Shown: positions 28,541 through 34,930, counted from the stretch's first letter. The stretch: DNA of 64,000 bases from Heterodontus francisci (GCF_036365525.1 NC_090392.1:70619247-70683246); one strand, 5' to 3'. The notes: a model not told the origin generated them from the letters alone. Program-made: numbers and translations.

Positions 28541-28859
28541 AACTCACTGGCTAGTCACAGGTGTGAGTACTACAACTCCAGTTTAGACACATGCACTAAC
28601 TTTAGTAGAAAACACCTAGCACACAATACAGGTAAATACACTTCACATGTATATCTACTTAAACATCTTCCAACAGACAGTGTGAACCTTTGCAGTCTTT
28701 TTTTTTCACTAAAGTATGGAATTAGGGCATCAATTTATCAGACACAATACATATTAGGGCAGCTTCTTGGCTGTTGCCCAGCTGCTGCGAATGATACTTT
28801 GACTTTATCAGAGACTTCATGCTGAGAATGTTGAATCACACAAGATATATCAGATGAGC

Positions 28860-29438
28860 CCCCACTCTCCATTCAGATCCTACCCCGCTCTCCATCCAGA
28901 CCCTCCCCCACTTTCCATCCAGACCCACCCTGCTCTCCATCCAGACCCTCCTCCACTTTCCATCCAGACCCTCTCCTGCTCTCCATCCAGACCACCCTGT
29001 TCTCCATTCAGACCCTCCCTCACTTTCCATCCAGACCCTCTCCTGCTCTCCATCCAGACCACCCTGTTCTCCATTCAGACCCTCCCTCACTTTCCATCCA
29101 GACCCTCTCCTGCTCTCCATCCAGACCACTCTGTTCTCCATTCAGACCCTCCCTCACTTTCCATCCAGACCCACCCCGCTCTCCATCCAGACCCACCCAG
29201 TTCTCCATCCAGACCCTCCCCTGCTCTCCGTCCAGGCCCACCCAGTTCCTCATCCAGACCCTACCCCGCTCTCCAGCCAGACCACCCTGTTCTCCATCCA
29301 GACCCACACCTACTCTCCATCTAGATCCTCTCCCACTCTCCATCCAGAGCCACACCTACTCTCCATCTAGATCCACCCAGTTCTCCATTCAGACCTTCCC
29401 CCGCTCTCCATCCAGACCCTCCCCCGCTCTCCATCCAG
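28860..29438. repeat. Pyrimidine-rich minisatellite (21-23 bp unit, 67-bp higher-order repeat)
   Basis: Roughly 25 units with core CTCTCCATCCAGACC; CTCTCCTGCT recurs at 28971, 29038 and 29105. Confidence 0.9.
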
Positions 29439-30339
29439 AATACAGTCGGATGCTGCTTTCCTTTAGTCATGATATCCGATAATCATGGTGTGAAGAAGGC
29501 TTGACGAACCAACTGGTCTTTTTCTACCTGTCAATTTCATATGTTCGTATGCCTTTCTCCATTATGTGCTCTGTTGGAGCAGCTTGTTCTTAGTTGATTC
29601 TGATGAAAGGTCACGACCTGAAATGTTAACTCTGTTTTTCTCTCCACTGATGTTGTCAGACCTGCTGAGTATTTCCAGCATTCTCTGATTTTGTTATTGG
29701 GTTTACTTTCTGCTGCTGGTCTGGAGTGGTTATTTTGATTATTCAAGCTGCGCATAATGACAGCGACCCCTCTCCGTACAATGTTGCTGTTGTACAGCTG
29801 TGTTACACACCGTGTTAGAAGTAACCAAGGAATTAAAGCACACACAATGATCACAAAACTCTCACACACTTTGTTTCTCAGCTTACCATCTTACCAACAA
29901 AGACATACGCTGTGCAAATGAGAGCATTGAAGTTGCCTGGCCAAACAACTGTCTTTTACTCATTCTTTAAATGACAAATCAATAATGCAATTAGCCACTT
30001 CTGGATTTCCAATTAGCAACATGTGGCCAGTGGCTAACATATTGGACAGTGCTGCTTTGGTAACATCACAGGCTTTATGCTCTGTAGGATGGAATATATA
30101 GTTTAAAACCGGGTGTGGTGTGAGTTACAGAGTTGAATGGATTGGGCAGGTACTTGACTCATGGAGATAAATAAATATCAGAGGTGTGGCGGAGAATTAA
30201 TATGAGTTGACATCCCAAATAAACAGGAGTGTGCTTGAAAGAAAGGAATGGAAGAAGTAAAAAAATAGAACGAGAATGAATGACATAAAAGAATTAAAAG
30301 GATGATATACAGCCAGAAACTTGGAACAATTATGAACTG

Positions 30340-30625
30340 GGGGGGATAATGTAGAACTGCAAAAGGACATAGACAAGTTGGTGGAATGGGCGAACAAGTG
30401 GCAGATGAAGTTCAATGTGGAGAAAGGTGAAATGATTCATTTTGGTAGGAAGAACATGGAGAGACAATATAATATAAAGGGTACAATTCTAAAGGGGGTT
30501 CAGGAGCAGAGGGACCTGGGGGTAGATGTACATAAATCATTGAAGGTGACAGGACAGGTTGAGAGAACAGTTAATAAAGCATACAGTTTCCTAGGCTTTG
30601 TTAATGTGGGTATAGAGTACAAGAG
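30340..30625 (+). mobile_element. CR1 host element, 5' part (continues at 31283-31290 and 34394-34930)
   Basis: VEWANKWQMKFNVEK...GIEYKS breaks at 30625 and the same family resumes as RPQLEYCVQFWAPHFRKD at ~34394. Confidence 0.85.
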
Positions 30626-31270
30626 TCCTCAGTACCTTGCTCTACGGCAGCGAGGCCTGGACAACGTATGTCAGCCAAGAGCGACATCTCAATTCATTCC
30701 ATCTTTGCTGCCTCCGGAGAATACTTGGCATCAGGTGGCAGGACTGTATCTCCAACACAGAAGTCCTCGAGGCGGCCAACATCCCCAGCTTATACACACT
30801 ACTGAATTCAGCGGCGCTTGAGATGGCTTGGCCATGTGAGCCGCATGGAAGATGGCAGGATCCCCAAAGACACATTGTACAGCAAACTCACCACTGGTAT
30901 CAGACCCACCGGCCGTCCATGTCTCTGCTTTAAAGACGTCTGCAAACGCGACATGAAGTCCTGTGACATTGATCACAAGCCGTGGGAGTCAGTTGCCAGC
31001 GATCGCCAGAGCTGGCGGGCAGCCATAAAGGCGGGACTAAAGAGTGGCGCGTCGAAGAGACTTAGCAGTTGGCAGGAAAAAAGACAGAAGCGCAAGGGGA
31101 GAGCCAACTGTGTAACAGCCCGACAAACACATTTTTCTGCAGCACCTGTGGAAGAGCCTGTCACTCCAGAATTGGCCTTTATAGCCACTCCAGGCGCTGC
31201 TCCACAAACCACTGACCACCTCCAGGTGCTTACCCATTGTCTCTTGAGATAAGGAGGCCAAAGAAGAAGA
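30626..31270 (+). mobile_element. RTE-clade LINE 3' fragment with TSD
   Basis: LYGSEAWTTY...LRRILGIRWQD, RWLGHVSRMEDGRIPK and terminal CSTCGRACHSRIGLYSH; (GAA)n tail; 12-bp TSD AGAGTACAAGAG at 30614-30625 and 31271-31282. Confidence 0.85.
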
Positions 31271-31290
31271 AGAGTACAAGAGCAAGGAAG

Positions 31291-34200
31291 CAATGTAATG
31301 GTTTCCTGGATAATTGGGGCTCTTTCTGGGGTAGGTGGGACCTCTACAAACAGGATGGTCTTCACCTGAACCAGAGGGGTACCAATATCCTGGGGGGGAG
31401 ATTTGTTAGTGCTCTTCGGGGGGGTTTAAACTAAATCAGCAGGGGAATGGGAACCTAAATTGTAGTTCCAGTGTACAGGCTGTTGAGAGTAGTGAGGTAG
31501 GGGATAAGGTTACAGGGACGCAAGAGGGCACTGGCAAGCAAGAACTTAGTTTAAAGTGTGTCTACTTCAACGCCAGGAGCATCCGGAATAAGGTGGGTGA
31601 GCTTGCAGCATGGGTTGGTACCTGGGATCTCGATGTAGTGGCCATTTCGGAGACATGGGTAGAGCAGGGGCAGGAATGGATGTTGCAGGTTCCGGGATTT
31701 AGATGTTTCAGTAAGAACAGAGAAGAGGGTAAAAGAGGGGGGGGGGGGGGTGTGGCATTGTTAATCAAGGAAAGTATTACAGGGGCAGAAAGGACATTTG
31801 AGGACTCGTCTACTGAGGTAGTATGGGCCGAGGTTAGAAACAGGAGAGGAGAGGTCACCCTGTTGGGAGTTTTCTTTTGACCTCCGAATAGTTCCAGAGA
31901 TGTAGAGGAAAGGATAGCGAAGATGATTCTCGACAGGAGCGAGAGTAACAGGGTAGTGGTTATGGGGGACTTTAACTTTCCAAATATTGACTGGAAATAC
32001 TATAGTTCGAGTACTTTAGATGGGTCTGTTTTTGTCCAGTGTGTGCAGGAGGGTTTTCTGACACAGTATGTGGACAGGCCAACCAGGGGCGATGCCACAT
32101 TGGATTTGGTACTGGGTAATGAACCCGTCCAGGTGTTCGATTTAGATGTAGGTGAGCACTTTGGCGATAGTGATCACAATTCGGTTAGGTTTACCTTAGC
32201 GATGGGCAGGGACAGGTATATACCGCAGGGCAAGAATTATAGCTGGGGGAAAGGAAATTATGACGTGATTAGGCAAGATTTAGGATGTGTAGGATGGGGA
32301 AGGAAACTGCAGGGGATGGGCACAAACGAAATGTGGAGCTTATTCAAAGAGCAGCTAATGCGTGTCCTTGATAAGTATGTACCTGTCAGGCAGGGAGGAA
32401 GTTGTCGAGCGAGGGAGCCGTGGTTTACTCAAGAAGTTGAAGCGCTTGTCAAGAGGAAGAGGGCGGCTTAAGTTAGGATGAGACGTGAAGGCTCAGTTAG
32501 GGCGCTTGAGAGTTACAAGCTAGCCAGGAAGGATCTAAAGGGAGGGCTAAGAAGAGCAAGGAGAGGACACGAGAAGTCATTGGCGGATAGGATCAAAGAA
32601 AACCCGAAGGCTTTCTATAGGTATATCAGGAATAAAAGAATGATAAGAGTTAGAACGGGGCCAATCAAGGATAGTAGTGGGAAGTTGTGTGCGGAATCAG
32701 AGGAGATAGGGGAAGCGTTAAATGAATATTTTTCGTCAGTATTTACAGTAGAGAAAGAAAATGTTGCCGAGGAGATTACTGAGATACAGCCTACTAGGCT
32801 AGATGGGATTGAGATTCACAAGGAGGAGGTGTTAGCAATTTTGGAAAGAGTGAAAATAGATAAGTCCCCTGGGCCAGATGGGATTTATCCTAGGATTCTC
32901 TGGGAAGCCAGGGAGGAGATTGCAGAGCCGTTGTTGTTGATCTTTATGTCGTCATTGTCGACAGGAGTAGTGCCGGAGGACTGGAGGATAGCAAATGTTG
33001 TCCCCTTGTTCAAGAAGGGGAGTAGAGACAGCCCTGGTAATTATAGACCTGTGAGCCTTACTTCGGTTGTGGGTAAAATGTTGGAAAGGGTTATAAGAGA
33101 TAGGATTTATAATCATCTTGAAAAGAATAAGTTCATTTGCGATAGTCAGCACGGTTTTGTGAAAGGTAGGTCGTGCCTCACAAACCTTATTGAATTTTTC
33201 GAGAAGGTGACCAAACAGGTGGATGAGGGTAAAGCCGTGGATGTGGTGTATATGGATTTCAGTAAGGCGTTTGATAAGGTTCCCCACGGTAGGCTATTGC
33301 AGAAAATACGGAAGTATGGGGTTGAAGGTGATTTAGAGCTTTGGATCAGAAATTGGCTAGCTGAAAGAAGACAGAGGGTGGTGGTTGATGGCAAATGTTC
33401 ATCCTGGAGTTTAGTTACTAGTGGTGTACCGCAAGGTTCTGTTTTGGGGCCACTGCTGTTTGTCATTTTTATAAATAACCTGGATGAAGGTGTAGAAGGG
33501 TGGGTTAGTAAATTTGCGGATGACACTAAGGTCGGTGGAGTTGTGGATAGTGTCGAAGGGTGTTGTAGGGTACAGAGGGACATAGATAGGCTGCAGAGCT
33601 GGGCTGAGAGATGGCAAATGGAGTTTAATGCAGAGAAGTGTGAGGTGATTCACTTTGGAAGGAGTAACAGCAATGCAGAGTACTGGGCTAATGGGAAGAT
33701 TCTTGGTAGTGTAGATGAGCAGAGAGATCTTGGTGTCCAGGTACATAAATCCCTGAAAGTTGCTACCCAGGTTAATAGGGCTGTTAAGAAGGCATATGGT
33801 GTGTTAGCTTTTATTAGTAGGGGGATCGAGTTTCGGAGCCACGAGGTCATGATGCAGCTGTACAAAACTCTGGTGAGGCCGCACCTTGAGTATTGCGTGC
33901 AGTTCTGGTCACCGCATTATAGGAAGGATGTGGAAGCTTTGGAAAGGGTGCAGAGGAGATTTACTAGGATGTTGCCTGGTATGGAGGGAAGGTCTTACGA
34001 GGAAAGGCTGAGGGACTTGGGGTTGTTTTCGTTAGAGAGAAGGAGGAGGAGAGGTGACTTAATAGAGACATACAAGATAATCAGAGGGTTAGAAAGGGTG
34101 GATAGTGAGAGTCTTTTTCCTCGGATGATGATGGCAAACACGAGGGGACATAGCTTTAAGTTGAGGGGTGAAAGATATAGGACAGATGTCAGAGGTAGTT

Positions 34201-34393
34201 TCTTTACGCAGAGAGTAGTAGGGGCGTGGAACGCCCTGCCTGCAACAGTAGTAGACTCGCCAACTTTAAGGGCATTTAAGTGGTCATTGGATAGACATAT
34301 GGATGAAAATGGAATAGTGTAGGTCAGATGATCGGCGCAACATCGAGGGCCGAAGGGCCTGTACTGCGCTGTAATGTTCTAATTCTAATTCTA
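31291..34393 (+). mobile_element. Young CR1/HER1-like LINE: ORF1 esterase C-terminus plus complete ORF2 (APE endonuclease + RT)
   Basis: ORF1 end YKQDGLHLN...GLN* (SGNH DxxH motif). ORF2 is one frame 31431-34322 with two premature stops (31878-31880, 32469-32471). Motifs YFNARS, ISETW, MGDFN, SDH, QHGF, KFADD; (TTCTAA)n tail. Confidence 0.95.
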
Positions 34394-34930
34394 ATAAGAC
34401 CTCAGCTGGAGTATTGTGTCCAGTTCTGGGCACCACACTTTAGGAAAGATGTGAAGGCATTGGAGAGAGTGCAGAAAAGATTCACGAGAATGATTCCAGG
34501 GATTATGATATTTAGTTATGAAGATAGATTGGAGAAGTTGGGACTCTTTTCCTTGGAGAAGAGAAGGCTGAGAGGTGATTTGATAGAGGTATTCAAAATC
34601 ATGAGGGGTCTGAACAGAGTAGATAGAGAGAAACTGTTCCCACTTGTGTAAGGATCGAGAACGAGCGGGCACAGGGTTTAAAGTGATTGGCGACAGGAGG
34701 AAAAACCTCTTCACGCAGCGAGTGGTTAGGATCTGGAATACACTGCCTGAGAGTGTGGTGCAGCCAGATTCAATTGAAGCATTCAAAAGGGAATGAGACT
34801 GTTATCAGAAAAGGAAGGATGTGCAGGGTTGCAGGGAGAAGCAGGGGAGTGGCACCAGGTGAATTGCTCATTTGGAGAGCCAGTGTAGACACGATGGGCT
34901 GAACGGCCTCCTTGAGCGCTGTAACAATCC
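34394..34930 (+). mobile_element. CR1 host element, 3' part
   Basis: RPQLEYCVQFWAPHFRKDVKALERVQKRF... plus 3' UTR. Confidence 0.85.

Follow-up and report, generated by a model that had tools for sequence, protein, structure and literature searches.

A conserved slippery heptamer at the ORF1/ORF2 junction of esterase-type CR1 elements as a candidate -1 frameshift signal

Introduction

Among the retrotransposons of most vertebrates, CR1 is the group that dominates (PMC13343379). As described in two studies, canonical vertebrate CR1 elements of the esterase-ORF1 type have an SGNH-esterase ORF1, a coiled coil, Cys motifs and an APE-RT ORF2, together with a short-repeat tail and frequent 5′ truncation (PMC13343379, PMC3905857), and the elements described here share this layout. 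How ORF2 of a LINE is translated from a two-gene RNA has been called unclear or unconventional (PMC3708506, PMC2881922, PMC5009743). Recoding in LINEs has been proposed before, since the Dictyostelium elements TRE5-A and TRE3-A, which like CR1 are APE-type non-LTR elements, are described as depending on a -1 frameshift for ORF2 (PMC5911963), and +1 frameshifting or readthrough has been suggested for Paramecium non-LTR elements (PMC5405496). TRE5-A and TRE3-A differ from CR1 in being amoeba elements of another group with another ORF1, and the source gives a statement only, in a figure legend (PMC5911963). The term 'frameshifting' has no occurrence in the accessible text of either CR1 paper (PMC13343379, PMC3905857), and CR1 has none in that of a review of frameshifting (PMC5009743). 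Across the literature searched, which left out the 1997 descriptions of CR1, we found no proposal of CR1 frameshifting. Those 1997 papers reportedly describe overlapping or closely spaced ORFs.

Materials and methods

Searches of the genome under study (G000), for which the queries were the window DNA and divergent ORF1 proteins, returned 157 loci. Removal of three duplicates (L007, L031 and L050) left 154 loci in eight lineages, A to H, with H represented by a single copy. ORF1 stops were located by tblastn using ORF1 tails minus their last four residues, followed by re-anchoring of up to 8 nt with up to two mismatches to the motif; a shift was needed for 13 copies, and the junction of L069 was lost, leaving 153 copies scored. 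A quick ORF1 tree served only to choose queries.

A metagenome scan yielded 26 loci, comprising six informative junctions (L110-L115), five other LINE junctions (L106-L109 and L121) and 15 loci that were unrelated or ended before the junction. We take L110-L115 to be bird/reptile-type CR1, a label based on their ORF1 tails rather than on record names. The 14 lineages counted below are the eight of this genome plus these six loci. Scans of viral contigs returned no relatives, and scans of genome contigs returned none or six weak matches in bacterial genomes, which were left unused.

Results

The junction lies within the window, by which we mean the whole stretch of 64,000 nucleotides of the Heterodontus francisci genome that was analysed (NC_090392.1:70619247-70683246). 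Its features are:

31299..34394, + strand: CR1 LINE copy of family A, 5′-truncated and inactivated, with a (TTCTAA)3 tail at 34377-34394
31300..31434, + strand: ORF1 remnant, the last 44 codons plus stop, comprising the SGNH esterase end with its DGLH motif and the tail GGLN-stop
31422..31428, + strand: overlapping heptamer G_GGU_UUA
31425..31431, + strand: slippery heptamer U_UUA_AAC, candidate -1 shift site
31425..34322, + strand: ORF2 in the -1 frame, with a 46-codon linker, APE endonuclease and reverse transcriptase
31432..31434, + strand: ORF1 stop TAA, directly 3′ of the heptamer
31437..31482, + strand: hairpin of the original prediction
31442..31451, + strand: G-rich box GGGG-R-A-N-GGG at a fixed distance from the heptamer, candidate linear 3′ stimulator
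31506..31508, + strand: codon 28 of the -1 frame, AAG in the window copy and ATG in a younger family A sub-lineage
31563, 31644 and 31680, + strand: ORF2 landmarks YFNARS, ISETW and first in-frame ATG

The element is 95% identical over 1908 nt to the family copy L022, and the match begins at 31299; only 44 ORF1 codons are left because the element is 5′-truncated at that point. The full ORF1 of the family copy P0001 matches PF13472 (SGNH esterase; E 6e-15), and ORF2 matches PF03372 (E 2.9e-20), PF00078 (E 3.5e-36) and also PF14529. The 3′ end consists of short tandem repeats, with no poly(A) and no LTR. We presume the element to be a CR1 from its domain layout and its ORF2 motifs, only ORF1 having been placed in a (quick) tree. 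Family A is young and abundant in this 6.0-Gb genome, and its closest named ORF1 relatives come from sharks and rays. Owing to the 5′ truncation and to premature ORF2 stops at 31878 (specific to this copy) and 32469, the window copy is a dead, shortened relic that preserves the signal and cannot itself make the product; neither the truncation nor these stops had been remarked on in the original prediction.

Several neighbouring features were recorded. The young CR1 copy is nested in an older CR1 3′ fragment (window 30336-34920), which also holds a second insertion at about 30626-31272 that ends in GAA repeats and that we take, from its translation, to be RTE-like. A long low-complexity tandem repeat at 28800-29480 has Pro/Ser-rich open frames on both strands. 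Elsewhere in family A, the 5′ UTR carries sequences resembling a splice donor (GTAAG) and a branch point (CTAAC), together with a pyrimidine tract and a CAG immediately before the ORF1 ATG (L022:2730-2812, minus strand; L033 and L039), and the family C copy L078 shares the donor; no joint across this intron-like stretch was seen in putative RNA contigs, which are weakly informative here.

The original prediction for this locus was that tandem slippery sites followed by a possible stem-loop may direct a -1 frameshift from ORF1 into ORF2. Its reading of the junction was accurate: ORF1 ends GGG GGT TTA AAC TAA, with GGGTTTA at 31422-31428 and TTTAAAC at 31425-31431, both in X_XXY_YYZ phase, and TAA at 31432-31434. 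The -1 frame has an upstream stop at 31407-31409 and is open from 31410 into the endonuclease, and its first ATG does lie beyond both YFNARS and ISETW. Because the + strand of the window contains 317 strict heptamers as a chance background (about 0.005 per position) and 11 TTTAAAC, one such site in one copy would be only suggestive, and the case rests on conservation.

TTTAAAC is exact in 138 of the 153 G000 copies, which were chosen as best matches and anchored with up to two mismatches to the motif allowed, and a stop comes next in 149. The heptamer before the ORF1 stop is conserved well beyond this family: heptamer plus TA(A/G) is invariant in 14/14 lineages, which share ancestry and amount to perhaps three or four deep groups rather than independent samples. 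The final codons are NNT, TTA (Leu), AAC (Asn) and TA(A/G) in every lineage, with TAA in five, TAG in nine and TGA in none. The wobble T that precedes TTA is kept in 14/14 across six codon types and five amino acids. Other conserved Leu columns within the same 30 codons use three to five codons each, conserved Leu, Gly, Asp and His columns taken together use two to five, and TTA accounts for 3/27 Leu codons in the rest of ORF1. From codon usage alone, and assuming four independent groups, the chance of this pattern is about 5e-6. T_TTA_AAC_TAG stands at all six bird/reptile-type loci, and their -1 frame holds ORF2-type sequence; L113 has a later indel and L115 ends early. Comparison at synonymous positions supports the view that the nucleotides of U_UUA_AAC before the ORF1 stop, together with the -1 overlap, are conserved much more strictly than the encoded proteins require.

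Protein records extend the pattern. An LN ending is present in 94 of 156 ORF1 tails, a set that includes near relatives, and its sources include sharks, rays, Latimeria, Paramormyrops, Xenopus, Chrysemys, Erythrolamprus and Varanus, among others. A residue compatible with NNT occupies position -3 in 93/94 of these tails, compared with 52/94 at -4 and 60/94 at -5. The distance from DGxH to the end of ORF1 varies from 22 to 39 aa, and LN or GN stays with the stop and not with the fold. Thirteen ORF1 proteins end in GN; the single DNA obtained for them (L106, a distant relative) reads CAG GGA AAC TAC TAG, giving a site G_GGA_AAC, a class known from this one contig, which ends 14 nt further on. 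L107 carries G_UUA_AAC, an imperfect version of the site, and L109 lacks a slip site and has its ORF2 in the +1 frame. We regard the junction as a real and deeply conserved candidate recoding signal.

Further observations concern individual records. L109:900-1220 is CR1-like with no ATG ahead of the endonuclease motif, and represents a decayed copy or another route. Four distant ORF1s (P0098, P0100, P0104 and P0214) have Lys-Asn a few residues from the end, compatible with A_AAA_AAC. P0008, recorded as an SGNH hydrolase of Pseudomonas aeruginosa, shares 75% identity with shark-type ORF1, and P0079, recorded under a frog parasite, clusters with ORF1s of Xenopus type; both records are probably host contamination.

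The other half of the tandem site fared differently. G_GGU_UUA is the slip site of the L-A totivirus; here it occurs in 100/153 copies but only in lineages A, C, D, F and H, so that GGGTTTA is present in 5/14 lineages and missing from nine (0/11 B, 0/12 E and 0/13 G copies). We therefore rejected the tandem arrangement as a conserved feature; G_GGU_UUA is a lineage-specific by-product of a Gly-Gly or Glu-Gly ending.

Downstream of the stop, G occupies +11 to +14 in 14/14 lineages with no indel in the spacer, followed by G at +15 and A at +16 (13/14 each) and G at +18 to +20 (12-14/14); GGGG stands at the box position in 132/153 copies. In the -1 frame, two positions of this G-box fall at the wobble base, and one of these stays G under five different codons. 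The predicted stem-loop did not survive comparison. Its pairs, CAGC with GCTG and GGAAC with GTTCC, are real, and the MFE fold of 31432-31500 reaches -12.5 kcal/mol, but this is at chance level against shuffles (z = -0.25). Among 58 family-A copies the outer stem is intact in 10, the inner in 25 and both in nine, and the hairpin has no counterpart in other lineages. RNAalifold over 15 sequences gave no consensus pairs, and 60-nt z-scores for a hairpin 5-9 nt downstream ranged from -2.24 to +1.89 over 16 sequences, with F alone below -2. The C content of the region is only 7-19%, which would make pseudoknots less likely. A G-quadruplex was likewise not supported for the window: G4Hunter-type scores are 0.92 in family A and 1.2-2.4 elsewhere, and most lineages have only two or three G-tracts. 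A search of the window element for a long-range partner of the G-box was unconvincing, the best duplexes (about -14 kcal/mol) falling on protein-coding motifs.

The -1 overlap is conserved: of the 139 scorable copies, meaning those with a recognised endonuclease motif, 115 carry ORF2 in the -1 frame, with a majority in families A-F. The frame is retained in 5/12 G copies and 0/1 H copy, scattered indels breaking the rest. Family linkers span 46 to 71 codons. The absence of an in-frame ATG ahead of the APE domain holds for some families only. Such an ATG is found in 0/19 D copies, 1/6 B and 3/17 F (at three different places), compared with 23/51 A, 9/9 C, 8/8 E and 5/5 G; no in-frame ATG ahead of the endonuclease is common to the copies of family B, D or F or of ancestral A, whereas C, E, G and young A carry one. 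In family A the variable position is codon 28, which is AAG in 32, ATG in 22 and another codon in three of 57 copies. The ATG copies have a mean identity of 98.4%, and 20 of the 22 fall in one young nested clade that keeps the heptamer, a distribution from which the ATG is read as derived. Of the 29 copies closest to the window copy, 27 have AAG, and the ATG clade is nested and younger, so the ATG-less state is not a defect peculiar to the window copy; the case that would have refuted the original prediction, an ATG missing from this copy alone, does not apply.

Indels occasionally join the two frames naturally. In some copies (G000:C5:208511469-208511984, L014 and L006) ORF1 reads on in frame, the examples including a 1198-aa open frame and, in L014, 442 aa through a longer G run. 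Such continuation through FKL is also present in four database proteins.

Discussion

We consider it probable that -1 frameshifting at U_UUA_AAC produces an ORF1p-ORF2p fusion at the ORF1/ORF2 junction of esterase-type CR1 elements. The phase of the heptamer, the -1 overlap, the invariance at the nucleotide level, the absence of a common start codon in several families and of a conserved local fold are the observations from which we infer the slip, the fusion and a role for the G-box. A minority of ribosomes, holding UUA in the P site and AAC in the A site, would slip back by one base and so avoid the stop, tRNA-Leu and tRNA-Asn presumably re-pairing from UUA/AAC to UUU/AAA. Decoding would resume at CUA and continue through the linker, endonuclease and reverse transcriptase, giving a fusion of roughly 1,270 residues that reads ...GGLN-L(N/I)QQG... 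across the junction. Most ribosomes would stop and release ORF1p, resulting in an excess of ORF1p akin to that of Gag over Gag-Pol. More tentatively, the shift may be stimulated by the adjacent stop and the unstructured G-box, and not by a hairpin, with the box acting either through a bound protein or by contact with the mRNA entry channel of the ribosome.

A separate ORF2 protein might instead be made through termination-reinitiation, at the ORF1 stop or immediately beyond it, from an AUG or a near-cognate start, with the motif and the G-box positioning the terminating ribosome. Reinitiation has been demonstrated for SART1 and proposed for L1 (PMC3708506, PMC2881922, PMC5972666), and the calicivirus type tolerates start-codon substitutions and non-AUG starts (PMC5972666). 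In 5/14 lineages an in-frame ATG sits 2-5 nt from the stop's first base, namely in family C, where the stop forms a SART1-type TAATG, and four of the six bird/reptile-type loci (L110, L112, L113 and L114), where it begins 2 nt past the stop. These ATGs, and those that precede the endonuclease in C, E, G and young A, keep reinitiation the main rival, and a near-cognate ATT or GTG also overlaps the stop in families A, G and E. Yet an in-frame AUG overlapping or beside the stop is missing from the window's own lineage and from 9/14 lineages overall, and in F and H an ATG placed 1 nt past the stop is out of frame. Past the stop the codons are free to vary (ATT, AAT, ATG, GTT, GTG, AAA, GAA, GGT, GAT, GCT and GAC) while the heptamer is constant. 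As regards a TURBS, no UGGGA stands at a shared upstream distance, and five of the six bird/reptile-type loci have none within 180 nt. There is no conserved downstream fold of the SART1 kind, and the switch to another slippery heptamer in L106 would be left unexplained. We judge reinitiation unlikely as the explanation of the junction, and lineages bearing an ATG may use both it and frameshifting. The frameshift reading of the original prediction is thus upheld in part: the conservation of U_UUA_AAC and of the -1 overlap speaks for it, the tandem site and the stem-loop drop out, and reinitiation had been understated.

Two other explanations were weighed. The motif and G-box could be a non-translational signal for RNA packaging, ORF2p binding or splicing and processing, with ORF2 expressed from a spliced or internally initiated RNA; the intron-like signals in the family A 5′ UTR fit such a scheme, and a linear box could bind any G-run protein. 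We find this improbable, given that the motif is locked to the ORF1 phase and stop despite the variable distance from DGxH and that no polypyrimidine tract follows it. Contigs from four putative RNA runs, whose RNA status is guessed and whose weight is small, cover the junction and contain no joint between the 5′ end and ORF2. The heptamer could also be a by-product of overlapping coding, with Leu-Asn kept at the end of ORF1 and Phe-Lys-Leu and Gly-x-Gly kept in ORF2, as overlapping frames do fix nucleotides and most of the heptamer is dictated once L-N-stop lies over F-K-L. However, F-K-L can act only if the -1 frame is translated there, and this itself requires a frameshift because that frame is closed upstream (at 31407-31409 in the window) and has no start; F and K are not even decoded under the frameshift model. 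Moreover, the wobble G at +11 is invariant under five different codons, and L2-type esterases end without LN. The synonymous-site control largely refutes this explanation, to which we attach very little probability.

If frameshifting at U_UUA_AAC is taken as the CR1 route, related elements may use others. Two esterase-ORF1 LINE loci (L108:1316 and L121:1326) carry ORF2 in the ORF1 frame behind a single TGA then CTA, a candidate stop-readthrough junction, with no Met before the endonuclease motif in L108 and two in L121. TGA followed by CTA (CUAG) is a stop-readthrough context. The joining of the ORFs across TGA-CTA in both loci suggests that fusion by recoding recurs in esterase-ORF1 LINEs. 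A wider scheme, which we put forward as speculation and consider less likely than not, is that esterase-type LINEs have made an ORF1p-ORF2p fusion by retrovirus-style recoding since before the vertebrate radiation. CR1 would do so through -1 frameshifting, with an unstructured G-box as the driver and a protein as its reader, either a host G-run binder or ORF1p itself, the latter amounting to feedback control. Distant relatives would use other heptamers and L2-type relatives UGA-CUA readthrough, mirroring the retroviral split between frameshifting and readthrough.

A conserved -1 frameshift, if true, would provide a short and directly testable cassette, and the active CR1 enzyme would bear an esterase and a coiled coil at its N-terminus. 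The annotation of 'intact' CR1 copies and their construction for assays would then change, because ORF2 is usually taken to begin with the first ATG. The unstructured, G-rich box would also join the candidates for natural stimulators of frameshifting.

Among LINEs, the CR1 junction shares with SART1 and L1 a bicistronic RNA and, in family C, the TAATG of SART1 (PMC3708506, PMC2881922, PMC5972666). It is unlike them in that 9/14 lineages have no in-frame ATG at the stop, whereas all have the slippery heptamer. With the retroviral, totiviral and coronaviral cassettes it shares an X_XXY_YYZ site where the first ORF ends and a polymerase in the -1 frame, and both U_UUA_AAC and G_GGA_AAC are among four heptamers named as most shifty in a review (PMC5009743). 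It departs from those cassettes in that no conserved hairpin was found at 5-9 nt and a pseudoknot there seems unlikely, the stop is immediate and the 3′ element is a linear G-box. The frameshift of one virus does depend on a nearby stop codon (PMC5009743). Structured stimulators are spaced 5-9 nt from the shift site, compared with 11-14 nt in arteriviruses and cardioviruses (PMC5009743). The arterivirus PRRSV (nsp1beta/PCBP) resembles CR1 in having an unstructured, low-complexity motif that starts 11 nt 3′ of the shift site, but the PRRSV motif is C-rich and protein-bound whereas the CR1 box is G-rich and known from sequence alone, so that the analogy is one of position only (PMC5009743).
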